A DNA stretch of 64,000 nt. Origin: Marsupella aquatica (Eukaryota > Plantae > Marchantiophyta). A model generated the notes under the pieces. The model ran no database searches and had not been told where the DNA came from. It was given only the letters and a program-made list of their open reading frames with translations. Below are positions 1,287 through 45,600 of the stretch, in pieces; within the stretch, counting starts at the first letter, position 1; the number at the start of each line of letters is the position of its first letter. The stretch is from contig OZ316893.1 of the NCBI GenBank assembly GCA_973895155.1, positions 23,210,015 through 23,274,014 of the forward strand. Direction: 5' to 3'. Position numbers and translations under genes: made by a program.

Positions 1287-1852
1287 AGGCTTTTCCATCG
1301 ATTCCAGGCTTTGCAACGCTTCGCTGGAGTGCGAGGGGTTCTGCGTGGACGACTACGGTAGCTTCGTGGGCACTGAGGGGCGGCGAGTCGGGGATCCATT
1401 GTGCCTGCGTTGCTTTGAAAAATCAGTCGTTCATTCCTTGCTTCGGTACGTGAGTAGCTCGCTCGACATTGTTGCGCTTCGGCTCTCGCTTTCATTTAGG
1501 CCCGATGTTGTCAATGGCATGTCGTCGTGGTGTGAGGCAGTCGCATAGTGTTGGGTCGTGTTGCAGGTAGTGTATTGTTTTGTTTCCGTGCGCTTCGTCC
1601 TACGCTAGCAAGCAATTTATTGTGAGGAGGTCTGGGCCGAATCGTGTGAACTGTGACTGAGAGGACCAGAGCCTTCAGTTTGGATGGATTCTTGTTAGAA
1701 TTCTGTTTCTTTCAGCTCAGCTCTCTCATTTCTCTGCGAATTTTTTTCTTTGGGCTTTCAGGCGTCGTTGGGATTCCGTCATTAAGCTGGGGAAGGAGAC
1801 TTTACAGTCTGTGGAGGAGGCCCCGCCGCAGCAGCAGCAGCAGAGGGTGAAC

Positions 1853-6112
<4,260 letters not shown>

Positions 6113-21600: not shown

Positions 21601-24600
21601 TGGAACGCAATTGCAGGTATATGGATTGAACCAGCGAACAAAAAAAGTTAAAGATTAAGAGATTTTAAACTAGAGGAACTACAATAAAGAAGATGGGATG
21701 GTAAAAATGGGATGGTAATGGGAAAGTAAAGCATTTGATCCAGCATTTAAAGCAGTTCGTAATGGCATATTAGCAAATTAAGTACAGACCCTCAAAAGAC
21801 AGGTCATCTGGGATTCTTCTTTCAATCTGCAGCTTCACTTGAAGGTAATGTTGCATGTGAGAAGATACACAAACTATTACGTGCAAAGCGAATTGGTCAG
21901 TTAGGAATTCCTGAGTCTGTGCTTAATTGTGCAGGCCGAAGAGTTTTTGAAAGAAACTGTTGCATTCCGTGATCGGATGATGGCAAAAGGACCTGTAAAG
22001 TGCACTGATCTGGACGAGGGAGTCCAACTGCTCAAACAATATCAGGTCTGTGGATTAAACTTCTTGTATGAATGTGTAACGTTGGGCATTGCATTTGTAA
22101 AGTACCTTGTTGTCATGTTCAATTGGCATTGCTAGCCGAAAAGTGCTTGGAATCAATTTTAGTATAAGCTTCATCACCGATGTACAATAATTCCCAGGTA
22201 CTAAAACCATGGGACTACTCATTTCACAATTATGTTTATAACTCAATTTGTATTCATTTCCGGTTTCTTTACCTGGATTCATGGCGCAGGAGGAGCTTGA
22301 AACCATGCAGAAAACGAAAGATGGGCTTGTGCTTGCACAAAAGCTTTTTGACATGCCTGTCACACCATACCCTGCTTTGTTTGAGGTAGAGTCCCTCTGA
22401 CCTCGTGTGATGGACCGGAGTCTAGTTAGATGAATGTGATAGAAGAATCTATACATAGACAACTGGAAACCTTGAGTGGCTGAATGTTTCCTAGAGGGCA
22501 AAGTATTTTAACGAATAAAGTCCAGCGATGTTCTGAAAATATCCAAATCAAATTAGTGGCTCTTGAACATCTTATGGAGTGAAACGATTAGATCGTTATG
22601 GGCACAACATGTAATTAGTTTTACTCGCGTGGCCAGGTTGACACAGCTCTGACAAACGCTGCCCTGATCTATGATATCTACATTGAGTTTACAAATACAG
22701 TCGCCAGCTACTCAGGTATGCTGTGGGTTGAGCTGGATATCAACAAGCTAGTCACTATCACTGATGAGTTTGGAATAAGGATGAAGAAACTAAAGCGACT
22801 CCGAACCCAGATACCGTACATCAATCTGGAAGCCAGATTGAAAGGATTCCAGGACTCACTTCCACTAATTCAGGTACGACTTGCTTTACTTAATTTGTTT
22901 TTACAATCAGCCATGAAAGTTTGAACAGTGTGCTAGGAATGCGACCGCTGTTCCGCTGGAAGTAGTAGAATTGAATCTCCAAAGGAATGTTTTATACAAC
23001 TGGTGTAGGATCTCAAAAGTGAGGCTTTAAGGAAGCGACATTGGGACAAGCTGATGAAGGAGACTGGAAAAAGTTTTGACATGGATCCTAAAACATTCAC
23101 TCTGGCAAGCATTTTCCGAATGGAGCTCTATAATTTTGCTGATGTTATCAGGTAATGATCGATCACCTAACAAAATACAAGTAAGGCTGAATTGCATAAA
23201 GTATAATTAAATGCGCACGTCCAAGCATTGGAAGCTTGTTAATGAACCTACGAATGTCCGGCGTTCAGACCAATTATGTTTAAGAATTGGTCCACCAAAT
23301 CTATCACTGGCATCAAAAGCACTCAGAACTATGTAATTTTGGACTTTCCATAACTCCATGGATAAATATTTGCTGCTTCCTTGAGCCACATTACAAGGCA
23401 ACATTCCTATGTCTTCAGTGAAATCACGAATGCTGCAACAAAGGAGCTTAACATCGAAACAGAGCTCAAGAATATTGCAGAGGTCTGGAAGGTGCAGACA
23501 TTTGATGTCTTCAAGTACAACAAAGACGGAATAGACAGAGGCTGGGTGCTAAGGGCAACTGAACCAATAACAGTCCTTCTGGAGGAGATGATGATGAATC
23601 TTCAGGGAATGACCAGTTCTCGATATGTTCGACCCTTCATTGATGAAGTCAGCTCTTGGGAACAGAAGCTGAGTTTGGTTGGAGAAGTGATTGATACTTG
23701 GATGCAGGTTTGGAATTTTTCAAGTAGAGAAATGATCTAAAGTGTTTTGTTGCTTTTAGCTTTGCAATCGTACGTCAACTTCGGATAGTTCACCTGTCTT
23801 AATTACATTGCAAGTTTCCAATAAAAGTAGAAGAAAACTAAGACAGAAGGGATCATAGAAACAGGGGGAAACGAAATACAAAAGAAACCGAAAGGAAGAT
23901 ACGAATATATGTAAAGCCAACCATATAAAACGACAGAGAAACACGATCAGAGTAAAGGTTTGAGCCCCTGGGTGAAGAAGAAACGGATCGGTGCTTTGCA
24001 GGCAACATACTAAGATTGAATTGTTGTATGGTACGACGTGTCACTGTTGACGTGCAGGTACAACGAAAATGGATGTATCTTGAGAGTATTTTTGTGGGGT
24101 CAGATGATATCCGGCATCAGCTACCAAATGAAGCAAAGAAATTTGATCAAATTGACAAGAATTGGATGAAGGTAATGGCCGAGACATCCAAATTTCCCAA
24201 CGTTTTGGAGGCCTGCAGCTCTGACGGCCGCCTGGATACATTGAAACTGCTCTTCAAGCAGTTGGAGAACTGTCAAAAGAGCCTGAGTGAGTAAGTACCA
24301 CTGTAGCATCGCCCGATTCTTGTTATAGTTAGGTGAAGCTACCGGATTTCCATTACAACCACTCTTGATTAGACGCCAATTTAAGTGGTCAGCATGGTTT
24401 TGCTAGATTTAGAAACACATCTTTCAAATACCCCAATTCTCCATATTTTTGCAGGCCCTTCGTATGTCCTTTGCAGTTACTAGAAGCTGTACGTCAAGTA
24501 CTGGTTGTCGAGGGAATCTGGTGTTGCAGTTGTACTGCCTTAATTGTTGGGAACCCTGATTTATCGCAGGTATTTGGACAGTAAGAGAAACGCGTTTCCC

Positions 24601-27600
24601 AGGTTTTTCTTCATATCTGATGATGAGTTACTCTCAGTACTGGGTACCTCTGATCCCAGCTCCATACAGGAGCACATGCTCAAAATGTTTGACAATTGTG
24701 CTGCGCTATATTTCGGAGAAAAGGCGAAAACAGTAACTGGAATGAAATCCTCAGAAGCAGAATCTTTCAATTTTCGACTGAAGGTCAATACGGAAACTGC
24801 AGTTGAAATTTGGATGAAGTCTGTGGAGGCTGAAATGAGAAGTACCTTATTTGATATAATGAAAGAAGGTGTGTATCATTATGCAAAATCACGACGGCAA
24901 GACTGGATCTATGACAACCTTGGTATGGTCACCCTGGTGAGTTTCTACTGAAAAGTTGATTGAGATCTTTCCAGAATTGAGAGTTTGCAAAGAGAACTAA
25001 TATGTAAAAACTCTACATCACTTTCGAGCAGATTCTGATCGGGAATGAGAATTGAACACGTCCGGGTTTTAATTACAGGCTGGAAGCACTGTTTGGTGGA
25101 CATGGGAGGTTGAAGATGCTTTCCGTTGTGTTCGCCTTGGGGACAAAAATGCAATGAAAACGTTCAGTGTCAAGCTCACAAATCAGCTGACTGAGCTGGT
25201 TGGAATGGTCCGGTCAGACCTGAGTGGCCTACAAAGGAAAAAGGTTTGTCATACCTTTTGCACACAGATTCGAAATTGGGCAGTAGACGCAACCCTGTGA
25301 CTTTGTTCGATTCCTTACTAAATTACTATTGTGTTGGTTAAAATTTTATGCATTCATGCTATATAGAGAGGAAGGGCCTTACCCTATGCCAGTAGTGTAC
25401 TGTACCAGGTTTCTAATTCCAACATGATATTGATTATTGTGCGACATATCCAGTTTCCCACTATTTTTCTTTGGTAGAGGTATAAATAAATTTGGGCTCT
25501 TCTACCGCTATTTAAATCCTTAACCAGTCTTTCCTAACACCTCTCCTCCCAGGAGATAGCCTTGTCACAATTTGCATCCGTTTTCTATTACAAAGCAGGT
25601 CAATGCCCTGATCATCATTGAAGTACATGCACGAGATATCATCGATACGTTTGTCCGTGATAGTATTCTTGACTACCGAGAATTCGCATGGGAGAGCCAA
25701 TTGCGTTTCTACTGGGATCGGAAGGAAGATGACACTGTCATAAGGTGAGACACCCTTTCCTTGGAGAATCTTAGGAGTGAACATTGGAACTGACTTACAG
25801 GACAGGAGACCAGATTGTCTCCAAATGCCTGGAAGCCATGAGTTTGAACCGTGAATAAGAGGTAATCTTTTACTACAACTGCTGGGTCCATGAACTCAAT
25901 CTGCTAGAATTTGAACATAGGTTTATCTGCATCAAGATGGTGTTTCCAAAGATGTGCAATCGACGATGTATGGACAAATTTCGTTGGTCAAGCCTTACCT
26001 TAGAAGGCGCAGTTTCATGTTATTTGTCAGAGATTTGTGTTTGTTGTTTAGATAATTAAGCAAGTCACTTAACTTTGTTTGTTTGATAGAGAATCAACTC
26101 GATATACATAGAAATCTCCAAGCGCAGTACTTGAGATTAATGACTGTCTTTCATATACGCTCAATGATGCTCTAATTCTACAATGTGACCTTGCAGACAA
26201 TGTACAGGGGAATTCAAGTATGGATATGAATACATGGGCTTGAATGGAAGACTTGTTATCACAGCATTGACTGATCGCTGCTATATGACTCTCACAACAG
26301 CACTCACTTATCGCCTGGGTGGTGCTCCAGCTGGGCCTGCTGGAACGGGCAAGACAGAGACCACGAAGGATCTTGCGAAGTCCATGGCTTTACTTTGTGT
26401 AGTGTTCAATTGTGGTGATGGTCTTGATTATAAGGTCCGTATTGAATCCAATTGGTGCCAGAACAGGGGAACAGATTCCTTCTTTCGATCTGACTCACCT
26501 GTTGAACAGCCTGTCTATGTCGAGATTGAAGCATTTTCATATTTCCACGACTGTTGAACAGCCTGTCTATATCGAGATTGATGCATTCTCATATTTACAC
26601 AAGTGTTCAACACCAGAGAGATAATCAAATAAAGTAGCTGCTGCATGTGTTGTTACTTTTGAGATTGATTCCTACATTCTAGATTCATCTCGGAAATCCT
26701 TACCAGACTGGTCTTACCTAAGTGATAAAAGTACGTTGTACATTAATGACTTTGTCGAAAAGATCCGTGGAACATGTTGTGTGTATAGCAGGGATATGAA
26801 TCAGGCACTGTAACCAAAGCCCAGCCCAAGTGGGTGACAGACAAAACGGTGCAAAGCTGATAACAGTGTCCATCTTTATGTCCAGGCGATGGGTTCCATA
26901 TTTTCTGGGCTCGTCCAATGTGGAGCATGGGGATGCTTTGATGAATTCAATCGTATAGAGGCTGAAGTGCTGTCTGTTGTTTCGTCTCAAATCAAACAGA
27001 TTCAGGTTTGCTTTTTGCATTTTACATCGTTTTCGGTGTATACGACATTTATCAAGTTTTTCTTTTAAGATTAACAAAGAACAGCATAGCATAAAACTTG
27101 GTATTGATTTCTTTGATTGGAAATCTTCCACTTGTTGGGAACTGGGCTGTTTTCGACGTGGTGACCATCTTCATTCAAGATCTTATATAGGCTTCCACAT
27201 GGCTGTCTAAAACACTTCGGGTCATGATGTACAGGAAGCATTGAAGAACGAGCAAAGGAAATTCGTATTTGAAGGCCGGGAGATTGCTCTGGATCCAAGG
27301 TCTGGAATATTCATAACAATGAATCCTGGATATGCTGGGAGAACAGAGCTACCGGACAACCTAAAGGCCCTGTTTCGCCCAGTGACCATGATTGTGCCAG
27401 ATTTCCTTCAGATCTGTGAAATCATGTTGTTCTCAGAAGGGTAGGATTTTTTTTCCAAAGGTCTTACTAACTAAAAGGTCACATATAATGTTTGAAATCC
27501 TAATTTGTTTGTTTAGTAATTTAGATGGGACTGAAATATCAGAACAAGCCAAACTAAGCGACATTTTCTCCTCCACAGATTTGATAGTGCCAAGGTCTTA

Positions 27601-30600
27601 GCCAAGAAGATGACCGTGTTGTATAAACTGTCCAAGGAACAGCTCTCCAAGCAGTATCACTATGACTTTGGTTTGCGAGCTCTGAAGTCAGTTTTGGTCA
27701 TGGCTGGATCTTTCAAGCGAGGCTTTCCTGAAATGAGCGAAGCACTGGTCCTGATGCGAGCTCTACGAGATATGAATCTTCCGAAGTTTGTTTTTGAGGA
27801 TGTTCCTCTATTCCTGGGTCTGATCAACGATTTGTTCCCGGGGTTGGACTGTCCTCGAGTCCGGTATCCTACTCTCAATGATGTTATTGAGCAAGACTTA
27901 AAGGTAAAGATAATGCAACATAATGCTTGACGTTTAAACAACACCTTCTGGCACGAGTTTTCTTTTCCTCCATGTTTCCTTCTTTGTATGCCTTGTCAAG
28001 CGATCTACCATAGGGAGAAGAATCATATAGCAACATCCAAAATTTGGGCTTTCCTCCATGTTTTTTTCCTTGTATGCATTGCCAAGCGATCTACCGTAGG
28101 GAGAAGAATTTTACAGCAATATCCAAAAATTGGGTTTAACAGCACAATAACAAGAGGAATATGCAATACTGTTGATACAATCTAGAACCTTGTGAGTAAG
28201 TGCCCGACAATCACTTCATGAACAGGTCATCATTTGATTTCGTCCTTCTGGAAATGAATTCTATTTTTGTAAGTGTTACTCTTTTTGTTAGGCAGAGGAA
28301 ATGACTCTTTCCAGATCTCACCCTGGATAAACAACAGAAGGGTCTTTTAGGTGTATTATTCTGCTTGTCCAGATTCAAATTGAAGTATAGTAACTTGAAG
28401 ATTGCCATGCATATCAGGCATTGTTTAGCAAAAGTTACTCACCAAAGTCACATCTAAAGTTGGACAAGTTAAAGACATGACAGATTTTGTTTCTAAGAAT
28501 TGTCACCATGGTTTTGTCTGGAACGCAGGAAAACTCCTACCAAGTGCTGACAGCACCTGGTGAGCAAGTAGATAAAGTAATCCAGCTCTACGAGACCATG
28601 CTTACACGGCACACAACTATGGTGGTTGGCCCTACTGGTGGAGGCAAGAGTGTGATTTTGAATACCCTTGCCCGTGCACAAACCAGAATGGGCTATCCTA
28701 CAAAGCTTTTCATTATCAATCCCAAGGCTCAACCTACCAATGAGCTATACGGAGAGATGGGTGCGTTCGTTTTATAATTTTTCAACTATGGTCATTTTAA
28801 GGTTGAAATGGCCATACACGTAAAAACAAATTGTGCATAATGATGAGAAGAATGAGCATACGAGGAAAGTATTTCAAGAACCTTGGGTGAGCTGCAATTT
28901 AGGCCAAATCTAGGGCGATGCAGGGCAGAGCAGGGCAGGGCAGGGTGACCCACCCTGGACCAATATTCATTTTGAGCCCCGAGTTTGCATTTCCACAGAT
29001 GGTAGTCAATGCTCTAATTATTAAAGGCACTCGAGGAAAGTTCTTTGTAGCTGATAGATGTTTGCTCTACAATCATCTTCATGGGATAAGCGCCCGTATG
29101 TAGGCTTTCATCATAAAACTGAATTAAGTTCTCCTAGACAAATTAAATGAAAGCATGCTGGATAAATCAAAAGGGAAAGATACAACCAGATTATTTGTGA
29201 GGTTACAATTGTTATGTTTTGAGAACGAGTTTTAAGTCAGGATGCTTTTGCCAGGCTTGGCAAAAGGGGTTCTGACCACAACCAAAACAATTATGTCCCA
29301 TATTTCTCGTCCCAAGCGCAAGGGAAGGTTATTTTGTTCAATTTGTATGATTATCGCAGTGACAACTTCTTTGTCATGACACAGATCCTGACACTCGTGA
29401 CTGGACGGATGGTCTGTTATCTAGCATTTTCCGGGAAATGAATAAACCTCTCCCCCCTGACAAGCAAGACAGGTTCTACATTGTGTATGATGGAGATGTA
29501 GATGCCCTGTGGGTTGAGGATATGAACAGTGTCATGGACGATAACAAGTTGCTGACTCTGCCAAATGGAGAACGTATTCGTCTTCAGAATCATGCAAAAA
29601 TGCTCTTTGAGGTTTTTGTCGTCAATTCTCTGTAACTTGGCAGAAATCACAAACTGGGATGTTTGCGTTTGCAGCGTGCAGCGCAAACACAATTATGGAG
29701 CTTAAGAAGATAATTAAATGATGGAGTAGTAATTAAGAAAGAAACACAGATTGGTTCTGGAGACTGGGGCGGACACACTCAAACCATAGTGCAATAAAAC
29801 AGGAGTAAAGTACTTTGAAAATACTGTAAATCCCCATCAAACAATTCTGTAGCAGGATGCTGAAATCTCTTCAAAACAGTACACAATTTCTTCGCTGCTC
29901 TCTCATGACACAGCTTGCAAGTCAATTATACCTGACGAGGTCTGAATTCATCTAATGTGATAGGTGGCAGATCTGCAATATGCCTCGCCAGCAACTGTTA
30001 GCAGATGTGGAATGGTGTTTGTGGATAACAAGAACCTGGGATACAAGCCTTACCTATGGAAATGGTGTAACACGAGGACAGTGTACGTCAAATTTGAACT
30101 TCTTTTTGTAGTAGTTGTACCACTGAATGCCTCGTGGTTCATAAATCCTAAGCTCCAAACTAGAAATAACTTCCTTCGTGAAACATGTTAAAGCCATGAT
30201 ATTACACATAGTGTACTGTTTACACAGATTTAAATTTACTAGATTTCACACGGTACCCAGAAACTGCCTACGTGGCTGATAAACTCTCCACCGCAAAATG
30301 ATTTCCTTCTTGAAGGTAGACCTAAGGTGAAACATAATTATGTCAAACCGTGGTATTGTATGTATCATGCCAATTGCATAGATAAATATCAAAACTACAT
30401 CTAAAACTCTGTAAACTCGTGTGAGACTCATGTATCACTGCAGCTTTCGCAAGGCCAGGATTGAGCTTGGAAAATGCCACTGATGTAATGTAGACAAACT
30501 GTCACAGTTGAATCGTCTCCATGGGCTTTGCAGGAAAGACGAGGCAGAGAGTTTGAGAGATTTTATGGACAAATATGCCCAAAAGTGTATTGACTTTGTC

Positions 30601-33600
30601 TTGGAAGGAATCAATGAGGACGTCATCACCAAACCCCTGCAGCAAACCATCCCTTTGACTAATTTGAACATGGCGATACAGCTTTGCACGCTTCTCGAAG
30701 TAATTCTTGGTGATGGAACTCTAGTCTCTACGCCGCAAGTATGTTACAATCTGAACCTTCAGCCCTGGCCGAAAATATCGTTTGTAAATTGGAAGACATG
30801 TATCGTAATAACCACTCGAGAGAGACTTGAACTAAGAGCAGAATGCATTGGGCACAGAGTCAATCATTCCCCTATCTAATTGGGGCATCCCCTGCTTGAC
30901 GTGACATTACAGTTAGAAATTTCAATCAAGATTCAAAGCAAATTAAAGTCCTTCCATCTTGGGAATTCTCCAAATAAAAGCCCTAGGGCAGGTAGTGCAT
31001 TCGGGCACTTACTTGGACGATTTCCTCACGGGAGGCGCATACCTTACATATTCTTCTATGGTATTATCACTCTGAAATGTGGTTACAATTTTTCCCAGCG
31101 AATAGGAAAGGATGAAACTTCCTGAAATCAAGAGTTTGATAAAGTTAGTCAAGTTCGTAAGAACTCTGAAAGGTGGCGCGTATATGAAACACAGTTTTGA
31201 GATCTCACAGTTGGTTCACAACAGGCGATCGAAGCAGTCTTCATCTTCTCGACGATATGGTCCATTGGAGCAGGCGTAGTGCAAAGCACAACATGTAAGG
31301 ACCGGGATCGTTTTGACAAATTCGTCAAGAGCCTTGCTGGACTTGGGACGAGTCCCAATGACCCTTTGCCCCCAAATCAACTCCCAATTGAGTCCCTTTA
31401 CGAGTTCTGCTTTGACATTGTTGACCTTCAGTGGCGATCCTGGAAAGTGATGGTTCCGACTTATGTGGTAAGAGAACCATTCTCTATCCTTCCACATTTC
31501 TAATGTCGTTCCAAAACTGTCAGTCTGGACTGTGGGACGATGGTTCTCCAACCAAATCAATGACAGTGTCTGCTGATGTTCTCTTCATTGTCTGAAACTT
31601 ATTAGTGGTTAAAAGATGCAGACTTTCAGCTACTAATGATGCTCATCCTAAACATTTGAAGGCTCTCTTGCAACTTGCAGCCCCCGCCGGACAAAGTCTT
31701 TGCCAAGATTCTTGTACCAACTGTGGACACAGTGCGATCAACATGGCTCTTGAATACTCTAGTTCAGGTACCGAAAAACTGTATCAAATACTTTCTTTGC
31801 ACTATCTATACTCAAATATGGTCTTCAATGTCAAATACGCACAACAAAAAATTACAAATTTCCGCAGTGATCAGGGTTACTGCACTGGACGAGGATGAAA
31901 GAAACATCCAGGTACTGGCATTAGTCATCACAGATTGTAATGAAGGAAACACTCTCTGACTGTAGAAAGATTGTTCCCCAAACTCTCTGGACTGAGAGAT
32001 AGGGGCTTTAATTTGCAGTAAGATTTGAAGCTACCTACTGTGAAGAGATCCTTCTCCACGTGAACAATACAAGATATATTAAAGAACTTTAGTAGTTGGC
32101 CTGAATATCGAACCAATAAAAATCTCGTCGTCCACTGCTCCAGCACTAAATTGATCAGCTGCTAAATCTAATGATTACATTTACTCTCTGCAGGCTGGGA
32201 GAGCTGTACTTTTCGTGGGGGAGAGTGGAACAGCAAAGACAGTCGTGATACAGAAATACTTTGGCACCCTGCCTACTACAGGATGGCTGATATTGGCCAT
32301 GAATTTCAGCAGTCGTACAACCTCCATGGATGTGCAGAGGATGATTGAAGATGCTGTTGAGAAAAGGACAAAGGTTACCTCCTCCTTACAAACTGCCCCC
32401 CACCTTAGATGATCCTCCCTCCCTGCCCCTGTCAGAGACTTTTCTGTATTTGACAAAGTCGGTTCTCCCATATCATCTTTCAATGGCTAATCTATCCTAA
32501 TTATTATTCCTATGTGTCCTCTAATTACAATTTCGGGACTTAACATGAACTAGAAAGCACTATAATGCTTGGCAACTGCCGTACTGACATCCTTTCCGAT
32601 GTAAGAATCATGGGAACTAAACTAGAGACTTTGTACCCATAGATCACTTCAACCATAGTACCGCAATCCAGACTTACCAGTTAACGAACTGACTGAGTGG
32701 GATGCCAACCTCTAGACGCCCATTCGTATCAATTCTACATTCAGGGTTTTCGACCTGATCGATGATGATACTCCTTAGATCCCGTTCATCTGTAGCCACC
32801 ACAACCCACACGACAGAGTATGCCGGTCTGAACCCGGCGTGAACGATTTCGATCCCGACTTTAACGTCAGCACTTACAGAGCTCGTCTCCATCCAGATTT
32901 TCGCCTCAAAGTACTCCTGGTTCTCTATATGATTGGTGGTTACTCCATCATCATCAATCAAGGAGATTTCCGTTTTGCTGCTGTTTGGGCTGTCAAGAGG
33001 AGAAGGGAAGAGGAGTACCACTCTCTCATCATCAGGCACTTCTGCGGTATGATGCATAAACTTGCCCAGTGGAAGCATTCCCCCCTCCGGTACGAAAACA
33101 GGGGGAAGGGCTGCTTCAATTGGAGCTTCCACAGTCACCTCTCTCCCACCTCGGAAAAATTTACCAGTAAGAAAACTAAACCACCCACACCGATTGTCTA
33201 CCTCGTGATTTTTGTTGCTAAAAATGTTAGCCACCCTGGAATTGGAGAATGTATCCACCTCACCCTTGAGAGGATAGTCAAGAGGGTCAACCACTGGCAA
33301 GAGCCTTGGGAGATAGACAGTTCTGGTGAGAGCATCCTCATGCCACACCGGAGCAACCAGCAGGCAGCTCCCAAGCATGTACTCAAATCCTAACTCGAAA
33401 GTTCTGGGATCATGCTGGAAATGCCAGAACAAGGGCCTCATGATTGGCCAAGATGTGCGTTGGAATTCCACATGGAGTGCATAGAGGTAAGGAATAAGCC
33501 TCATTCGGAAGTGCATGGAGCTCCTTATCCCGGTTATCGCGGATTCATACATCCAGGGCTCAGTCACTGTGTTGTCCGAATTCCAAGAGTGAATGCAAAA

Positions 33601-36600
33601 CCTAGGATTCAGCACACCAGCCTGGACCCATCGCTGAAGCAGTTCAGCTGAAGGTTTGGGCCCAACGAATCCCCCTACATCATGCCCATATCCAGCAGGA
33701 AATGCAGAGAGCCCAGCCGAGAGGCCCATGGGGATGTTGAACTTTAACGTCTTCCAGTCCGTGCAGTTGTCTCCAGACCATGTTTGGGCCGCAAACTGGT
33801 GGCACCAAGGAGACGCTGACCGCGTCACAACAAAGGGCCTCAGCTTGGGAGACCACTCTTGCATTGCCTGGTACGAGCATTGTGCCATGAGCAGAGTCTG
33901 GATTGGGGCTCCCACCTGCCTGGCTGGCTGGGGCTGCTTGGAGGCAAATCTTTCGTTTGCCACGGTGGTCTCCACGTCCACGGGAATCTCCATAGCAAAG
34001 GTGTTGGTGTCATCTGTAAATGTGAACTCATTATTATCATTCCAACAGCCTGAGATTCCGTATTCCAACAGAGATTCCTTCACCGATTTCTTCCAGAAGT
34101 TGTAACCTGCTGAACTGGTGAAATCAATGTAGGATGCAGAGGAGCAAGTACTTGCTCCGGCACTCCACTGCATGACTCTAGCAGGCTGGTCCGTTTCAGC
34201 ATCCCAGATGAACCCTTTGGAAGCTTTGATTTGTTCGTATTGTAGATGTCCCTCCAGCAGCCATGGTTTGATATTTGCAATAACATTAATACCCTGAGCT
34301 TTTAGTTTCGCAATCAGCCTCTTGGCATCAGGGAATCGCTTTGTGTTCCACGTAAAAACACACCTTTCTCCCTGCTTGTTGACTGTGTACCCGGAAGACA
34401 GGTGGAGTCCATCACAGGGGATGTCATGAAAACGGCATAGCTCCGTGAACGCTTCAATTCGCTCTTGTGCATCTTCAGCTTCCGTATAGTTCATGGAGGA
34501 TGCCAGAAAGCCGAGTGAGTACCGAGGAGGAAGAGATCTTGGATGCCCCATGACTGATGCAAACCCATCCAGAACGGCTCGGGCAGATGGGCCGAAGAAT
34601 AGATAATAATCCAGGGGACCACATTCCGCATGGCAGTACCGATAGGATCCCCAAAACTGCGCACAGCCAAAAATGACATACCACATGAGCCATTGCAACA
34701 AACTGAAGTATAAGGAGCGTAATTTAGAAGTAAACTATAAACTATGACATAAACTACAGGTCTTGCGTTTGTGGTAGTATAGCCCACAGCATCAATTTCA
34801 GCTCCGAGGTCGACCACAGTCCGGGACATGTTATTGTAGAAGAGTCCATAGGCAATTCCGGTTTCTTTTGAGAGTGTCAAGTAGAAGGGGCAGTGCTTGT
34901 ACAGCGGGTCTGTTCTCTCAGCATCATAACCCATTGAATCAAACCCCTCTAGCCTGAATCTTCTGCCATGAAGGTTGAGGTTGCCGGTCCGTTCTCCGAG
35001 ACCACAGTAGACTTCACTGGATTTCCGGCACATATAGTGGAAAACTCCAGATCCATCGAAGACGTAGGCGCGATTTCTTATGTCCTGTGCGAATTTTGTT
35101 GAGGAACTTGCTTCCATCCAGCTTAGGCTCAACCCATCAGCATAATCCACCTTAACGTGCAATGATGGAGTTCTGATGTGGACCATTTTTTGCTGATCAT
35201 CATGGTCGATGCTCAATTGGATAGGCGACTCAGAGGCCTCCCAACAAGCAGTGGTGCAGTTCGCAGGCGAAAATAGGACCCTCACCACTTTGCTGCTCAC
35301 AAACCGAATTTGAAAAATGTTTTCTTTGATACCTTTGAAGGTCACTGGGTGCATGAACTCTGTGACATAAACGAAACCCTTGGCCACAACTTGCTTCATC
35401 TTGTCATACACTAGCTGGTTTGGAGTCCACTGAGACTAATTATCTGATTGACTGGCTGAATGAGATATCCCTCCTCACCAAGATGATCAAGGAATCTGCA
35501 AAATCAACAGAACATTGCAGAGTGACATCAGGACATCAGCTTGACTACCCGAGGAAACTAGCGACATATAGGACTACAGAAAATCAGAATCAAAGAAGAT
35601 CTTTTGCAGGAGATGAAAATGAACGCATCCTGAAAGTCAAGGAGACACAGCTTTGGAGTCCGCCAAGAGTGCTTTCTTGCAAGGGAAATATACATAGGTT
35701 GCCCATAACGAAGAATGAATTGACGAGTATCCCAAAGATGTCCCATACCAAAGTCTCCAGATTCCGATCTCAAACTTCTTTAAGAAATACAAATCTAGAT
35801 ACACAACTAAGTAAAGCCAGCCCTTTGACTCCACTTACTATGTTTATGAACAGGACACTTATGGACCACCAGTGGGGAAGAAAATGATAGTGTATATTGA
35901 TGATCTCAACATGCCAAAGGTTGACACTTATGGCACACAGCAACCAATTGCTATGCTGAAGCTTTTCGTGGAGAGAGGTGGAATATACGACAGAGGGTGA
36001 GTATAAACAATCATTACGCACTTACAGAGTCACATTCCTATCTTATAGTCTTCCGCATGAGATAGATAGCAGATAGGAGTATTTTTCTTCTGCCCGTGTA
36101 TTACTACACATGTATATCTGCCTGTAACATTCGCGTACAAATGTGAACAATTCTGACACAGCAGCTTTCTTTTTAAACTTGGAATGATCAGGAAAGATCT
36201 CAATTGGAAGAACATCAAAGATCTGCAGTTTGTCGGTGCCATGGGACGTCCAGGGGGTGCAAGAAATCCTGTAGATCCCAGATTTATCTCCCGTTACAGT
36301 GTGATCGAGATACAATTCCCAGCGAATACGTCTTTGACTCACATTTATAACCAGATACTTGAAGCTCATGCTAAAGTTCTAAGTCCAGAGATTCAGGTTT
36401 GCCTAGAGCCTTTTGCAATGATTTCACAATGAGTCGTTTCCGTGAATTTTCTGTTTTACTGCCCCACATCGTTGTGGTTCAAAAATCCTTGCCGTTAACT
36501 TCGCCCATCATCATGCTTTACTTTGATCATAAGTGTCTGTCACTCACAGCAGTTCACTTTGTAGAATTGGGAACTGGCATAAATAAATCTTACTAATAAT

Positions 36601-39600
36601 TCGCGAACGGAAGCTACTGCAAAGGCCTACGGGGTCTAGAGTGAAGCATCTAGACCGTGACTCTACTGTAACTCACAAAACACAGAATAAAAGATGAACC
36701 GAAACAGCTAGAAATAGTTTTTTGTGCAAGTTACCTTTTCGTCCTCATCTCTTTCCGTTCAAGGAACGGGTAGTCAAGGCTAGTGTGACCAATAACTCGA
36801 GAAAACTCCCACCATGATCAATGCTTTGCAGGCGTTAACTCCTACGATCGCAGAGATGACTTTGACTTTGTATGGATATATCATAGAGAAACTTCCGCCT
36901 ACCCCATCTAGATTCCATTACATCTTCAATCTTCGTGATCTAAGCCGAATTTACGAAGGGTTGACACTGTCAACTCCAGACAAATTCAAGACTGCTAACC
37001 AGATGATCCGTTTATGGAGAAATGAATGTTTGCGCATATTTTATGACCGCCTGATCAACGATAAAGATAAAGATATTTTTACGGTAAATTGAGACTCTTT
37101 CAACATGATTTGCAACACAACTAAGTTGACAGTTTAACGTCAACGTACCAGCAGTAACCAAACAAAAAAACTGCCTAAAAGTAAGCAAGGATAATCATCT
37201 TTGTAGCAATTGAACTCCAATGCAACAGACTTTTAGTGAATTCCGTGAAAAGTCTGTAGATTCCCACCTGTTCTTTGTTGCAGCTATAAGTTCTTAAGTC
37301 ACCCTTTTCAGTGATGGCTTTCTTTGTCTTAGAAGCACAGAAACCTGAAAGGACAAGAGTAACAAGTACCTGCTGTAATTGCAGAGTAAAATGAGCGAAA
37401 TTCTCGCTTCCAAGCTCTCAGAGACACCAGCTGCAGTTGACTACATTTCTAAGAATCCAATAATTTTTGGGGACTTCCGCAACTGCTTGAGACCTACAGA
37501 ACCCAGGCTGTATGAAGATATTGGAGATTTTGAATTTATGAAGCCTCACTTCGAGGAAGTACTGGATGACTACAACATAACTAATAAAAAAATGAACCTG
37601 GTGATGTTTGAAGACGCGCTTGAGCATCTTACGCGCATACACAGAATCATGCGGTTGCCACAGGTAAATCAGGAATTAAGTAGTAGAATTTTGTTCAACT
37701 TGATTACGGATTGTAAATGGAGAACATTTAGAGGAATTAACGTGCGTTTTTTCGATCATACAGGAGTTGGATAATGGAGGGTGGCTGTGATTTGTAGGCT
37801 CACGATGAATCAATTTCTAATCATTGATTGCAATTGTCGTTTTTGCAGCTAGATTAACATGGCATGTCGTTGTTTGCTCTGTGGGGGTTAGGGCAATGCC
37901 CTTCTTGTAGGAGTGGGAGGAAGTGGCAAAAAGAGCTTATCAAAACTAGGAGCATTTACTTCAGGGTGTAAAGTGTTCGAGATAATTCTCACCCGTGGCT
38001 ACAATGAAGAACTATTCCGGGAAGACCTCAAGAACCTGTATGGTATGCTTGGCGCCCAGAATCTGCCTGTAGTCTTCCTATTTACAGATGCACACGTCGC
38101 AGACGAAGGTTTCCTGGAGTTGATCAATAATATGCTGACCTCTGGAATGGTACCTGCTCTCTTCAAGGAGGATGAGAAAGATGGAATGATTAGCCAGGTA
38201 CTGTGTCACCTTCCTTCTATATTATAAATAGATTGCATGCATAGATTGGAGCTATTAAGAGGACGTTGCTATTGTGAGTGAGAGGTAGGGCCCCCAGCAA
38301 TATCAAGCAGATTCACATTCATTCTGATCAGACGGTCTTTTGTAATGTTGTTCAGGTGAGGGATGAAGCTGTCGCCCAAGGAACCGTAGATTCCAAAGAA
38401 AACGTTTGGCAATACTTTATCAACAGGTGCCGAAGCAACCTTCATATCACACTAGCTATGTCGCCAGTCGGCGACACTTTGAGGACCCGCTGCCGAAACT
38501 TTCCTGGCATGGTACGTTCCTACTCAAATATGTTTTCGTCCGTCCGTCGACACTTAGATCTTACAGCACGAGAACTGATGACTGCCTTTACCTTGCATGC
38601 TCTACTTTCCTTATTAAGGGCGAAGGTCCATAACTGTGTGACGCGTCTAGGCTGTGTCCATTATATAGTGGAAAAAGCATTCAATCCATTTTCTACTGCG
38701 ATGTGATCTCCTCATCTGTCTACCTCGTTACACAAACACGTCAAAGAATTGGAATTTGGAGAAAACGACAATACATCGGCAATGTACATGACATGGTGAT
38801 TGGGTACATGACATGATGGATTGGGTACATGACATGATGAGACACCACACCTCTGAGCACTCATGATGAGACACCACACCTCTGCATCTCTCTGATCCGT
38901 CACCTCATTATGAAATCTTGTCAAAGTTTATTGCAAGCATTCCAGATATGATCGCAAAGGATGACCTCACATGTGAGTGCTGCACTGAACAAAGTCTTAA
39001 AGCCAGAAACCTGTCGTTTATTTATCCCATTTGGAAGTGTTAACATACAGACGCTGGGCAGGGAAGGGCGGGGCAGAGAAGACTCTCCTACCCAGACTCT
39101 ATCTCTGCCCAAGTAGAATTGCTACTCCAGCAAAGCATGGGGCCCAGAATATGCATTTGTGGGTAGCAATAGTCAAAGCCCAAAACCCAAAGGACCGTAT
39201 CCTCACTTCTCCTATTTGCAAGGTGTTGTGGTCACTGTGCCGCTGGGCAGAGGGAGACCAAACTGTATTCAATCTCTCTGCCTCTGGTGGAATTACATCT
39301 CAAACCAAACACATCAGGCCAAGCATTGCGGGAACTAATGGAACTATGTCACTAGGACAGGCCCAACAAAACTGGTAGATTTGAGGGCAGCCATTTCGAT
39401 ACAAGGTAGAAGACTAAGACAATCGGTCACTGGCGACTTATCGAAACTACAATTACTCTGTCGATATCCGAGCTCACCTGTGGGTTGGCACTTGGCACAC
39501 TTTCCTAAGCAGAGATGGTGGACTACGGTTACTACCCACATATAGATCCCCACCTAAAACTGCCCGAAAAACTGCAAACTATTTTTAGAATGGGCTGGCT

Positions 39601-42600
39601 GGCTGGTTAGCCAGAAGAAAACCTACCTCATAATTTAGCGACAGAGAGTCCGGTCGCCCATCTGAGTAATCCAACGCAAGCCTCTATCTGCTACTCAAGC
39701 AAAGCGCCCGCTGACATAGTCATGCAGCCTCCGACTCTGGACTGATCCAGATTAAGACTTTTCGATGCTCAGGCACGGGTGCATCGAGAAATTACGTGTC
39801 ATCAAAATGCAAGAAATGTCCGGTTCCACGGTTCCGGCTCAACACTCTGATCTCATGTACGAGGGTAGATGCACCAGAATTGCTTAATCCAAGAGACCAC
39901 GGAACCCCAAAACAGAAGGCAATGGACAATAAATCCATGCAGAGAAGAAATAGCTTGCCAAACGGAATTGAGTCAAGAAAAATGGGCCTCTACAGAGATA
40001 TGTAGAGAGCTGCTTAAAACGTAAACGATGAAAATCAATGATTGAAAGTAACGTGCTTCGAGAAATACGTTACATTCAGTGACACGCCAAATATCAATTT
40101 TGAATTTCCTAAAGGAAGTTGAATATGTGCTACCCTGGCTACGCCGAAAACCCGATAGAGGAATGACACGAAGAATATAACAAATTTGATGGGTCGGTTT
40201 CAACAATTTACATTCAGATCAAGACCATCACTCAGACGTAGATTGCAAAAGGAGGCCAGAGTCAACTACAGTCAACATGAGCTGGATTAAAATAACCATT
40301 TTCCAGACAGAAGGTTGAGATAATTGTACTGTACATTGAATGGGGACATGAATGTTGATAGCAGGAGAGGGGGAAGAAACAGAGAAAGGTGTAAATCCTC
40401 CTTGCCACACAGCACCTTTCACGCCTCCTAATGTGAAGCAAATTGTAGAACTGAGAGGCAATCATATAGACGTGTGGAACAATAGTGAAGAAGTAGAATT
40501 GAATGAAATTCAAATCCACAGAAGCTCAAGTGCCCTGACGGACAAGGGGGCAAGAACAAGAAGGCAAAGGGAACTTGTCAGAAAAAACTGAAATGCAAGC
40601 AGCAAGAAAGGGGAGAAACTAAAACACAAACAATCCAAGGGCACAGATGCATTATTGTTCTAGAAATAAGCTTACCTCAAAGAGGAAAGGTTCCACACAC
40701 CACTCGAAGGTGTAGATCCATCCTGTTTCTTCCTTCTCTCGCTGCTTTTTGATCATGAAGTGGGAGAGCGATGAGAAAGGCTCTCATCCTAGCAAGTTTG
40801 AGTCTCTCCACACTACTGCTCCTCACTGCTGGAGCAACTCAAACCGAAAGAGATCTCAACAGCAGCTTTCAGTCCTGATATATCCAACGAATATCCGTGA
40901 TATTCGCAGCATCTTCACCCTATTGAAAATCATCAAATAACTTGTACTTTTGTCCAGTTTGGGGGATCTGAAGTGTCGGTAGACGGCAGCAGCCGCTTGT
41001 AAGGGAGACCCGGCTTGTTCCTTGTTTACTTCACAGAGAAGGTCTTGTTTCCACTACACATCTTGGCTCATCAATATCTGACCAAACTGGCTCAATTTTC
41101 ATATTCAGTGGTATATTATTCTCCCTCCCCATCATCATGCCTGCCACCCAGCCACCCCTCCCCTTCGAATTCCTTCCTCCTGGCAGCAGATAAGGACAGG
41201 ATAGGTCGTGATGAGTTATATTGGGTAGTTAGAATCCTGGCCAGATATCCTGAAATGTTGGGTAGTATCTCGCCTGCAGCACCCAAGTAGCCTGGCCCGT
41301 CGTACCTCGTAGGTTGGTCATTTGTTGAATCCAAATCATCAGGGTCTGCTCCTGACTGGAGGGATTGGTTAGAATGGTTGGATTCATTGATTGTTACAAT
41401 CGCAGACAATTAGAAAACTGGGTTTATTCTCTCGTTGGCAAATTGCCCTTTGGAGGAGTCTCGCCGACTCGAAAGATTCGCTGGATCCATGTCATGGGTC
41501 TGCTTGCTAAATAGGTGAATTGTTCAAATTCCAAACACTACGGTAGTGTAAATTGGAATTTTATTCTCGTTTGGCAACCTGCCTTTCCTTTCACATTATG
41601 CGCCACTGCCCTCTTTTGGGTTTTCAGTGAACTTAAAAATAAAATAAATCAATTCAGTTCCCTTGCCCCTTTTGTTGAAGTTTCGTGAGCTTAAAAGAGA
41701 ACTCAAATCAAGTTACTCGCTCCTCTTGTTGGCGTTTCGTGAACTCAAAAGAGAGCTCGATTCACTTTCCTTGCCCCTCTAGTTGGCGTTTCGTGAACTC
41801 AAAAGAGAACTCGATTCACTTTCCTTGCCCCTCTAGTTGGCGTTGCGTGGATTTGAAAGAGAATTCTAACTTCAATTCTTGGGTTGCTTTGGCTTCGGGA
41901 AACTGTCTCCCGGTTTGGCGTTTTTGTTCTTTTGTACTGTAATATATATATACTTCAATTCAATATGAGGTGAAGGTGTGTTGAAAGGGGAGGTTTGTTT
42001 ATTCAGACTCACAAATGAATTCAATTCAATTCAATTCAATGCAATGCAATGCAATGCAATGCTCCTGTTGGGTCGCCCACGTTTAGGATCCCGTGCCACA
42101 GTGTGCATGAACTCACCTACCTTGACCACTTTGCATGAGGTGAGCAAGGCGCCGGATGGGGACACGTTTGTCACATGCCCAAACATAAGACGAATTGAAA
42201 TCTTGGTTTTACAGCTCCATCCATCGTTTTGCAAGCATGCACATACTTCTGGCTTCAAGCAGGAGTCCAGCCAGAGTCCATTACTCCGAAATAATAAGTT
42301 AGATAAGAACGGGAAGCCCCTGATGACGTGTCCCACGCTGGGAGGAACGAGCGCCAGCGAACCATGATTCACATGTCCGAATTTGGACACGCCCACTTGT
42401 TCTGCGTGTTTGTTTGTGGGTCAAACACATCGGTGAGATGCTCTGCTGAGTACTCATCTTCCAAATGTTTCGAGTAATTGTGGGTCAGCAGATTCTTCGC
42501 TGAGTACTAATCTTTATTAAGATGTTTTCCGTGATGGTGGGGCAGTCAGAGGCTCAGCTGAGAACTCGTCTTTCCTATGTTTATCGCTTTCGAGGTCAGT

Positions 42601-45600
42601 GGTCATCTTCAAGATGTTAGCCGTGTTTGTGAACCAGACAGAGGCTCAGCTGAGGACTCGTCTATTCCCTATTTAGCATTTTTGTGGGTCAGTCAGGCCC
42701 TGCTGATGAGTACTACAAGCCTTCCAAATTTGTACCATGTTTGTGGGTTAGAGCCCTCAGCTGATGACTACAGTCCTGTACTTATCTTCCAAATGTTTAC
42801 CGCGTTTGTGGGTCAGTCAGACAGTTCGTCTTGTACCTTCATTTAAGTACTGATTAAGTCAGCGGCCCCTCAAATGGATGAATTAAACCTTGCAAAAACT
42901 TGCTCTCATCAGTACCTCCTTAGGTCCGTTTACTAGTAATGTTCCAAATTTCTATTAATTTGAAGGTAATGTAGAAAATGTACTTAATTTTTTAAGTTTC
43001 TGCATATGTTCACTGGATGTTACGATTGTTTCCAATAAAATTGTAATTGCAACTTAGGTCCAAATCGTGAGTTTCTTTAGTGAGTGATTGATTCATTGAT
43101 GAATATTGATTGACTCAGGTAAACAACTGCGTCATCGATTGGCTAACGCCGTGGCCGGAAGAAGCTCTGCATTCAGTGGCAACAGTATTTTTGGCCGAGT
43201 TGGACATCCCAGATGAATATCGACCTGTGATCTTGAGTCACATCGTGATGGTGCACATGTCGGTGTGCAAACTCAGCGTGGACTTCGTCGAGCAAACTCG
43301 GCGTACCAACTATGTCACACCCAAAAACTTTCTAGATTACATTGACAGCTACCGAGTCTCACTCACCAAGCGGCGAACCTTCAATTTTGCGCAATGCAAG
43401 CGCTTGGATGGAGGCCTCTCAAAGATTGCTCAAGCCAAAGTGGAAGTTGCTCAGATGCAAGTAAGAATCTGTTTACAAACATGAAAGTGTGCTCCGTGCC
43501 AGACCAAAGGGCTGCTCAAATGAAGAACCCTCCTGTCCCTTTCATCCACCCAATTCAACTTGAAACACGAATGACTCCCAATGATGGTTAGTCTTGTGGG
43601 AAAACGATCAATCAGCTACTCATCCAATAGGGGGATGTACTGAGATGTTGATGTTGCTAAACAATGACCACCCAGAGAAACAAGAGATAACTCTATGAAC
43701 GAAAAACGAGAAAACTCTGAACAAAGACAGGAGGACAACAGTATCAATGTTGTAAGAACTGCTCCTAGTTTTACTTTAAAGCTCTAACGTGGAAAGCCAG
43801 AGAACCTATTGTTCATGAGGATCTTTGGGAAAGAACCTGAAGATGGCTGCGGTACGTTGCAGGTTACTATAGCAGAAGCAAAGGTGATTGTTGATGCAAA
43901 GACAGCTGAATGTAATGCTTTGCTGGAAGTAATAAGGTACATGCAAATTTCATTCCCAACATCAGAAAATTGATTTTAATCACTTTTAATGGTTTTTGAG
44001 GGCAAATTGCTGACAACAAGACTCTCACGCTTATTTCCAGACTAGACCCAGGACCATGGCACTCTGTAGACAGCTCAAAAATGTTTGATAGATTTGTAGT
44101 CACTGGAAAACATGCTGGTTCATTTTGAAAAAGGAAGTACGCCAGTGGGACTACTGCACTTGTGAATAGCAATAGAATTCACCTACGCACAGGCCCTGAC
44201 GCTCCTAAATGCGAACGGTGTCCAGCAAGAACTCGGACATTGTGAACTCAAAGCAACAAATTGCACTGGAAAAGCAAGAGTCTTTGTCGGTGGAGAGTGA
44301 AGTGATTGCACGCCAGAAAAAAGAGGCTGAAACAGCGTTGGCCGAAGCCATTCCAGCTCTGGAAGCAGCGGCTGAGGCTCTGAACAGCTTGAAGAAGGAG
44401 GAGATCACAGAAATTCGGTCCTTTGCGAAACCAAACATTTATGTCCAAAAGGTCCGACTCTTCTCAGCCTACAGGGACTCTGCGAAAATTTAACGATCAT
44501 ACTGGTTTGAGTCCAAATGTTCTTGGCAGCTACAATAGACATATTTCCATGCAAGGTGATCACTTTGTGCGTGTACAAGTTCTCAGTCCGTTCCATACCC
44601 TCCCACAACGCAATTGCCTAGTTTATTCTATTCTATTCTATTCGATTCGATTCAATTTTGCCCCTCCTTTGCAAAATGCAAGCGTTCTAGCGTGAGTTGA
44701 TCTCCAATGGCTTCCTAACAAGCTCTCACTTCCTTCAGCGAATATAATGAGTGTTGAACTCTGTTCCATCCAATTACAAGCTTCGATCATCGATTCCTTG
44801 ATGCCAAGCTCGGTTATCCAATTCATCTCATTAACATTTGGAACGACTAACGAGCTGATGCATGGGGTTTGGTTTGTGTCAGGTTTGTGAGTGTGTGGTG
44901 GTCTTGAGGGGTATCAAGGATGTGTCATGGAAGGGCGCTAAGACCATGATGGCAGACAACCAATTCTTGAAGACATTGGTAGAATTCGAGAAGGACAGTA
45001 TAACTGAGAAACAGGTCCGTGAACACCATCACAATTTGTCCACACATTTGAATTTATACATCTGTAGATCAAAATCTCACTGTAAATTCTCCCGGATAGT
45101 TTGGGTCGGCACTGCAATCTCTACAACGTTGATGATGACCACCATGGCTTGCGGTGCATCAGGAAAACTCGTAAAGCAATTAATACTAAATGTCTAGTCT
45201 AATTAAGCACTAGTTCTCCTTGACAATTGAGTATATGTGACTCTAGAATCAATTTATTCTTTCATTACGATAGAAGAGGCCAACTGGGTCATTCACGTGC
45301 AATCAGAGATAACTAACCAATTGCTCTCCATTTTCGTGGCTCTCTGTGTGAGAATATTGGAGCTGGGGCATTGCAGACACTGCTTTCCCTCTTCTGCTCA
45401 GTTGGATCAAACCTTTCTTTTGTTTTATTAGCTGCGTCCCGAGTTTTTCTACTCTTTCCCTTATCGTTGCGGAATTTACCCATCAAACAGAACTTACAGG
45501 GTAAAGAAGTTACAATATAGGATGTTTGTGATCACTTGAAAACTTGAATGGAAAAATAAGCCTAGAGATCAAACGAAGTACACAAGGCCCTAAACCACCG

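Follow-up and report, generated by a model that had tools for sequence, protein, structure and literature searches.

This work concerns a 64,000-nucleotide stretch of the genome of the liverwort Marsupella aquatica (contig OZ316893.1, positions 23,210,015 to 23,274,014), hereafter the window, and a glycosidase gene of family GH31 which lies in it on the minus strand, inside an intron of a dynein heavy-chain gene of the DHC1/DNAH10 type. The closest described relative is MpGH31.5 of Marchantia (MARPO_0064s0040), known by annotation name only, which is 64% identical to the window protein over its full length, carries the same motifs and lies in the same VPS4/DHC1 neighbourhood: the window gene is its ortholog, so not unique to the Marsupella genome. 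Next comes the enzyme of an E. coli LacI-MFS-GH31 cassette, which we take to be Aec37, its group presumably being that of the CDD entry GH31_glycosidase_Aec37; 34% identical over 854 columns, it has LSSGYT, WNDNNE, QTWSGDN, IHSWN and EPWMY in common with the window protein, but is bacterial, operonic and intronless. All four motifs listed in the original prediction, made from the DNA letters alone, are present, in support of the Aec37-type features recognized there. A literature search on the term Aec37 listed no paper containing it.

Sulfoquinovosidases of the YihQ type, also members of GH31, act on a C6-anionic analogue of glucose, according to the available parts of PMC10755693 (which, with those of PMC10792220, give the background on GH31 subfamilies and sulfoquinovosidases). 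A point of likeness is that one Chloroflexota homolog of the window GH31 lies beside an SftI-like isomerase. YihQ-type enzymes differ in being 26% identical over part of the barrel, in their nucleophile motif, WMADFGE, and in lacking HLSSGY; the window protein scores 135 with the family model PRK10426, whose cut-off is 553.

Genes of fungal origin which became domesticated in early land plants or in liverworts, such as microbial terpene synthases, fruit-body lectins, GH88, RDS1, YANB and EUPF, have been described (PMC12890914, PMC12513842, bioRxiv 2023.10.27.564390), and further fungal transfers, other than the one discussed here, are treated in PMC12448838 and PMC9434271. In the available parts of these reports the donors, where named, are ancestors of the Dikarya, and no GH31, Mucoromycota donor, retained donor intron or residence in a dynein gene is mentioned; the term 'GH31' is absent from the main texts of PMC12890914 and PMC12513842, and the supplementary tables of horizontal gene transfers of the latter (1,809 families) may list the gene, as may the expression tables of the former. 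A literature search listed no paper dealing with MpGH31.5, with the passage of a GH31 gene to liverworts or with a plant dynein that houses a foreign gene. Nested antisense genes in introns are also well established, typically as few-intron genes on the opposite strand of a long, tissue-restricted host, as in this case; the present guest differs in being likely foreign, and in having leader exons which likely lie in other introns of the host. Fungal transfers to bryophytes and nested genes are, then, both of a known kind, while the literature searches turned up no printed account of the two combined, of the donor or of the substrate lead.

The features of the host intron and of its guest are the following.

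24544..57007, plus strand: host gene DHC1/DNAH10, mapped part, the 5' part lying outside the mapping (exon matches, Pfam)
32194..32373, plus strand: dynein exon, first half of AAA3, with the P-loop GESGTAKT (Pfam, alignment to fish DNAH10, spliced joint 31764/32191 in run X1)
32374..35853, plus strand: host intron, 3,480 nt, phase 0, GT..AG
35854..35997, plus strand: dynein exon, second half of AAA3 (Pfam, alignment to fish DNAH10, spliced joint 35995/36191 in runs X1 and X4)
34788..35399, minus strand: GH31 coding exon 1, residues 1-204, N-terminal beta-sandwich (Pfam; start Met common to Calypogeia, Marchantia, Riccia and Umbelopsis)
34657..34787, minus strand: GH31 intron, 131 nt, phase 0, at the putative Mucoromycota intron site (joint in 3 of 4 runs)
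32674..34656, minus strand: GH31 coding exon 2, residues 205-864 and stop, with TIM barrel, HLSSGY (289), D411, D500 and C-terminal domains (Pfam, alignment, model)

The 28 mapped host exon matches span 27.6-57.0 kb. A search with the C-terminal dynein exon retrieved a Calypogeia fissa protein (98% identity) followed by DNAH10-named proteins (76 matches), and the host is therefore assigned to the DHC1/DNAH10 heavy chains, on the basis of these matches and of synteny with Marchantia DHC1. Plant dyneins are confined to lineages with flagellated sperm, as stated in the available text of PMC9237703. The exons ending in ...EKRTK and beginning with DTYGPP..., on either side of the intron, correspond to positions 30-91 and 93-138 of Pfam AAA_7, making up one continuous AAA3 domain; once joined, they align to fish DNAH10 at 64%, gapless at the joint. 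The 3.5-kb phase-0 intron splitting AAA3 of a sperm dynein, as originally described, is thus borne out by its GT..AG ends, by the two AAA_7 halves and by this alignment.

The guest reads from an ATG at 35399 to a stop at 32674 and encodes 864 aa, with no internal stops; its coding sequence lies entirely inside the one host intron. As many as 29 minus-strand GT/GC-AG introns would preserve the open frame between these ends. The one chosen, 34787-34657, is the sole coding intron; it yields a product agreeing with full-length homologs, and its joint, 34656/34788, occurs in contigs of 3 out of 4 sequencing runs. These contigs come from relatives 83-95% identical to the window, in runs only guessed to be RNA. 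The three GH31 Pfam domains, PF13802, PF01055 and PF21365, are above cut-off (E 4e-28, 3e-73 and 2e-16, respectively). An intact, complete antisense GH31 gene with a single 131-nt intron, as the original prediction had it, is confirmed by frame, domains, homolog fit and contig joint. The protein is not of the type of plant alpha-glucosidases, xylosidases and glucosidase II: WNDNNE replaces their W(I/N)DMNE, the sugar beet enzyme matches with E 7e-31 and 19% structural identity, and no plant-type GH31 occurs among the best 120 of 4,484 matches. A three-codon upstream open reading frame at 35398-35407, minus strand, overlaps the start codon; relatives have small deletions nearby, and it may not be conserved.

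Those 4,484 proteins were found, among 7,996 candidates, with exon 2 as the query, and the distribution was drawn from the best 120. Only four named plant proteins are present there, all of them from liverworts: C. fissa (89%), Marchantia MpGH31.5 (62%) and two from Riccia (58-60%). They are followed by Umbelopsis, Mucorales, Calcarisporiella, chytrids and Chloroflexota, the last being the bacteria closest to the fungal clade. No moss, hornwort, fern, seed plant or alga is named among these best 120, whereas a control query, VPS4, retrieved by name mosses, lycophytes, ferns, seed plants and algae, though not hornworts; Haplomitriopsida are not named among the matches listed. High-scoring nameless matches cluster with Endogone and Blakeslea. 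A profile-free search of 1.84 billion nameless representatives returned first the Riccia cluster, then a 61% relative of the Endogone protein, and also an 82% N-terminal fragment of liverwort type. The Endogone protein is the nearest fungal homolog, both by identity (54%) and by path length. One fungal homolog (P0422), 1,226 aa long, is fused to a region which by eye resembles RAD52, probably through a merged gene model.

The main tree, built on 31 rows taken from best matches only (5 liverwort, 12 Mucoromycota, 7 chytrid, 7 bacterial), groups the liverworts in a clade supported at 100/100, divided as expected into leafy and thalloid species, and joins them to Mucoromycota at 100/99. They are placed inside Mucoromycota, with Calcarisporiella outside, at 89/83, and Mucoromycota alone form a clade in 3% of 200 bootstrap trees; a quick tree on 61 rows agrees. 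The gene was thus likely acquired from a Mucoromycota fungus by the common ancestor of leafy and complex-thalloid liverworts, as judged from sequence relationships. Mucoromycotina are reconstructed as the ancestral liverwort symbionts in the available text of PMC6890582.

The intron of the GH31 gene points in the same direction. Environmental proteins are gene calls on unspliced DNA, and the ends of their fragments therefore mark introns. In the 50 environmental fragments mapped, 2 of liverwort type and 48 from fungal clusters, all nine fungal N-terminal pieces short of full length, contributed by five clusters (Blakeslea, Thamnidium/Mucor, Circinella and two of Umbelopsis), match no further than window residue 204, after which they read Val, often Val-Ser, as expected from a GT donor. 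The liverwort fragments end at the same residue. A second fungal intron is marked at residue 573, where 18 pieces end and 2 read through an insertion; one piece is full length and two are unrelated. Since the fungal and liverwort breaks at residue 204 coincide, the gene likely arrived as fungal genomic DNA, intron included, and, going by these broken gene calls, the liverwort gene likely retains one of at least two fungal introns. Shared introns are named as a hallmark of transfer in a review (PMC12448838, available parts).

GH31 enzymes are retaining and work by double displacement, a nucleophilic Asp attacking the anomeric carbon and a second Asp serving as acid/base. D411, within WNDNNE, aligns with the nucleophile D412 of FjDex31A (Ala in the mutant 6jr8) and D500, within WSGD, with its acid/base motif; by GH31 chemistry, D411 would attack the anomeric carbon and D500 would act as acid/base. 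A model of the C. fissa ortholog has the full GH31 fold (pLDDT 91.9), with a Foldseek TM of 0.78 to FjDex31A. In agreement with the lack of a signal-like start implied in the original prediction, the first residues already belong to the beta-sandwich, as they do in the bacterial and fungal relatives, and the enzyme is therefore predicted to be cytosolic.

The substrate lead comes from bacterial relatives. In homolog loci from a plasmid collection, uxaC, uxuA or manD adjoin the gene in 6 of 13 cases, as opposed to none of 8 loci of distant GH31 controls; a gene of the glucarate-dehydratase family is found at one of the 13, and the two neighbouring MFS genes that were tested look like transporters of sugar acids, with scores below cut-off. 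The occurrence of bacterial relatives in glucuronate operons thus suggests, by analogy, an acid-sugar alpha-glycosidase, with glucuronides as the leading candidates and the chances of an acid as opposed to a neutral substrate roughly even. A glucuronide by itself has a little short of an even chance, and a sulfoquinovoside or other acid sugar is improbable. We know of no alpha-glucuronidase activity in GH31, and no literature search for one was made. Plant lipids carrying alpha-glucuronosyl and sulfoquinovosyl groups are possible sources of substrate. Two further clues were tried and set aside: GH2 neighbours resembling beta-glucuronidases (4 of 13 loci, below cut-off) are nonspecific, GH2 being found also in 2 of 8 controls, and the supposed lack of any sulfoquinovosidase candidate in plants was dropped, GH188 members being reported there in the available text of PMC10755693. 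The mobilisation of carbohydrate in the antheridium, proposed in the original prediction, finds no support; the bacterial neighbourhoods point to acid sugars instead.

The same origin and architecture would also accommodate an ordinary neutral alpha-glucosidase or xylosidase, if uronate neighbourhoods belong only to a proteobacterial sub-branch, and we regard a neutral alpha-glycoside as a serious possibility, though not an even bet. The nearest solved structures are a dextranase, a transglucosylase and glucosidase II, no uxu motif is found in the first 37 genome loci, and an identity of 35-43% to bacterial homologs leaves room for a change of substrate. What speaks for acid sugars is that no cut-off of any NCBIfam model, glucosidase and xylosidase included, is reached, and that the Asp of the usual (W/L)xDIDY-type motif is replaced in HLSSGY by a Ser common to liverworts, fungi and bacteria, so that the sugar pocket would be common to the window protein and the uxu-linked ones, unlike that of glucosidases. 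As a marker of anionic substrates this replacement is weakened by a sulfoquinovosidase-like protein which keeps the Asp. As a group, the bacterial GH31 genes (loci L003-L006, L009-L011, L026 and L051) lie in glucuronate operons in Proteobacteria and near sulfoquinovose-like genes in some Chloroflexota; uncharacterised as it is, this putative acid-sugar group merits a study of its own.

The transcription unit of the guest likely extends beyond the intron 32374-35853, as judged from where contigs stop fitting the window and where their loose ends can be placed.

35400..35497, minus strand: final segment of the 5' leader with its splice acceptor, the AG at 35497-35496, preceded by a pyrimidine tract (contigs of runs X1, X3 and X5 stop fitting at 35497-35503)
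37268..37328, minus strand: likely an alternative exon of the 5' leader, lying within dynein intron 37084-37387 and followed by a GT donor at 37267 (joint 35498/37302 in X3)
39627..39651, minus strand: likely a leader exon farther upstream, represented by its 3' end, within the dynein intron at about 38513-43120, donor GAG/GTAGGT at 39626 (loose end of an X1 contig)
32191..32673, minus strand: likely 3' untranslated region, which covers the donor site of the host intron as well as dynein exon 32194-32373 (X1 and X3 contigs)

The X3 letters between the joint ends match 37271-37290 uniquely, and the X1 loose end is an exact match to 39634-39651, at a single place in the window (0 of 100 shuffles). 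Three of six short loose-end probes, those for X5 and for the far end of X3, could not be located in the window even with 3 mismatches allowed, and one short X3 probe missed where a neighbouring one was placed, so that two of three leader joints are placed. At the other end, an X1 record spans 32191-34656, and X1 and X3 records of a form 83% identical to the window join 32189-32383 to 32676 onward. The leader intron would accordingly span three or six exons of the dynein and, with leader exons in other dynein introns, the two genes would be interleaved, not merely nested. Such contigs are blind to strand, ends and level, and one contig across two genes does not prove a single transcript. Minus-strand features in the 4.6-kb dynein intron at about 38513-43120 may hold the promoter and further leader exons.

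The same contigs offer some additional observations. Dynein introns are retained in them over 35742-38000, while contigs of the upstream dynein are spliced; the retention is consistent with GH31 leader RNA before splicing, or with the presence of DNA in these runs. X1 and X3 each hold two GH31 forms, about 94% and 83% identical to the window over 32189-35399, both joined to the dynein exon, corresponding to two species or two subgenomes.

The nesting is apparently old. The gene predates the split between Marchantia and Calypogeia, going by the orthologs, and accession order implies the same arrangement in both. VPS4 serves as the synteny anchor:

58316..59635, minus strand: VPS4 gene, single frame (open reading frame and homologs)

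The VPS4-DHC1 pair is syntenic with Marchantia, whose v3.1 annotation has VPS4 (0064s0038), the DHC1-clade dynein (0064s0039, so identified as Mapoly0064s0039 in the supplement of PMC9237703, seen in part) and GH31.5 (0064s0040), which is the window order backwards. In all three chromosome-scale Marchantia assemblies, of opposite orientation, GH31 and then VPS4 are consecutive (BBN18320/1, BFI21309/10, BFI41685/6); this swap would place GH31 within the dynein span, if accessions track start coordinates and the dynein keeps its accession. The M. paleacea accessions 006101 and 006104 fit the nested order. C. fissa has two copies, with VPS4, a dynein piece and GH31 lying within 4 accessions in one and within 7 in the other, which fits nesting as well. 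Riccia has kept the gene off the dynein locus, and nesting is therefore not obligatory. The notion of a glycosidase sheltered in one intron, originally put forward, accordingly stands for the coding sequence only: leader and 3' end likely overlap dynein exons, and the Riccia copy is elsewhere.

Interleaving might be kept because GH31 transcription helps to silence the dynein outside sperm cells, by transcriptional interference. The leader and the 3' end of GH31 likely lie antisense to as many as seven exons of the dynein, in an arrangement apparently conserved in Marchantia and Calypogeia; we nonetheless consider this explanation unlikely, since mechanical reasons alone make nested genes hard to move and Riccia did separate GH31 from the dynein.

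Taken together, these data lead us to propose that genomic DNA of a Mucoromycota fungus, with its intron, entered the common ancestor of leafy and complex-thalloid liverworts and would have been inserted into an already existing dynein intron. A promoter in a downstream dynein intron would then have been recruited, giving a leader intron which crosses three to six dynein exons, the fungal intron at residue 573 would have been lost, and in Riccia the gene would later have been separated from the dynein locus. The product is predicted to be a cytosolic enzyme acting on small acid-sugar glycosides, most likely alpha-glucuronides. Origin and architecture are very probably as proposed. The full combination, DNA of a Mucoromycotina symbiont with its fungal intron still spliced, interlocked with DHC1 and encoding a GH31 alpha-glucuronidase which recycles head groups of anionic glycolipids, is given a probability of about 0.3.

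Several points weigh against the proposed history and function. The second fungal intron, at residue 573, is absent from the window gene, and the intron evidence is confined to the five fungal clusters and the liverwort fragments. The donor is narrowed no further than Mucoromycota, Endogone being nearest while the placement within Mucoromycota reaches only 89/83. All RNA-type evidence comes from the diverged relatives mentioned above, in runs of presumed nature, and the dynein joint 32373/35854 is not among the contig joints, an absence which proves nothing. In one Riccia species the gene lies 1,659 locus tags away from VPS4 (028562 and 026903), and in R. sorocarpa it is on another chromosome. 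No solved structure exceeds 22% identity to the C. fissa ortholog model. Motifs of uxaC/uxuA occur at only 12 of 80 genome loci, and the first 37, where there are none, are mostly from Chloroflexota, many on short contigs; one of four Chloroflexota loci has instead a sulfoquinovose-isomerase-like (SftI-like) gene and a transaldolase. Other features at the four loci viewed are TauE (1), a GH4-like gene (2) and an esterase-like gene (3).

As to origin, the gene could in principle be an ancient eukaryotic one which descended vertically and disappeared from every green lineage except liverworts, the intron at residue 204 being ancestral. Members of the family do occur in Mucoromycota and chytrids, with more distant ones in a cluster rich in Ascomycota, and old introns are often shared across kingdoms. 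Such a history requires the liverwort gene to lie outside all fungi, and monophyly of all fungi is rejected by the approximately unbiased (AU) test (p-AU 0.002); together with the firm union of liverworts and Mucoromycota and the best 120 matches, which name no other green plant or alga, this makes vertical inheritance very unlikely. Orthologs across the green lineages tracking the species tree do not appear among these 120 matches, and the horizontal acquisition originally proposed is upheld by the trees, the AU test and the patchy plant distribution set against the VPS4 control. Its microbial source is upheld as far as foreign origin goes, the donor being narrowed to Mucoromycota fungi and not bacteria.

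Independent transfers from bacteria into fungi and into liverworts, with an intron gained at the same site by chance, are hardly credible: Chloroflexota homologs are 41-43% identical to the window protein, but the eukaryotic sequences form one branch, at 100/100, and the chance of a same-site gain is about 1 in 1,000 (two fungal introns, about 2,600 sites), before site bias. Finally, an assembly chimera or fungal contamination, for which one might invoke that such fungi live in liverworts and that no single contig runs across the whole stretch, is practically eliminated. Unspliced pieces of run X7, which may itself be the source sample, are found in 30 of 30 bins, and some of them cross from exon to intron at both intron ends; GH31 and the dynein exon are also connected in contigs from diverged relatives; and the gene is present, with a branching that tracks the host tree, in chromosome-scale records for four further liverwort species.

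If the proposed history is true, the locus holds a dated molecular trace of the partnership between liverworts and Mucoromycotina, in which the retained intron tells to what group the donor belonged and that the transfer went by way of DNA and not of mRNA. It would also be a case of a foreign gene gaining promoter and leader inside a conserved motor gene of the 70-kb scale, without breaking the dynein. In Marchantia, MpGH31.5 would allow a tractable test both of what this uncharacterised group of GH31 enzymes does and of whether genes interleaved in this way interfere with each other.

Elsewhere in the window, no Rfam match was found over the 64 kb, no terminal repeats of note surround the guest, and a Pfam search of 7 open reading frames from the dynein intron at 38.5-43.1 kb gave no domain. 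The same intron contains short tandem and dispersed repeats, at about 41690-41860 and 42440-42830. VPS4 (58316-59635, minus strand) is an uninterrupted frame of 440 codons, convergent with the 3' end of the dynein; plant VPS4/SKD1 genes usually have several introns, and the single frame may reflect an old retrocopy or intron loss. At the opposite end of the window, at about 1850-4200 on the plus strand, lies a multi-exon gene whose exons resemble by eye spermidine/thermospermine synthase, preceded by a long, repeat-rich leader from about 900.

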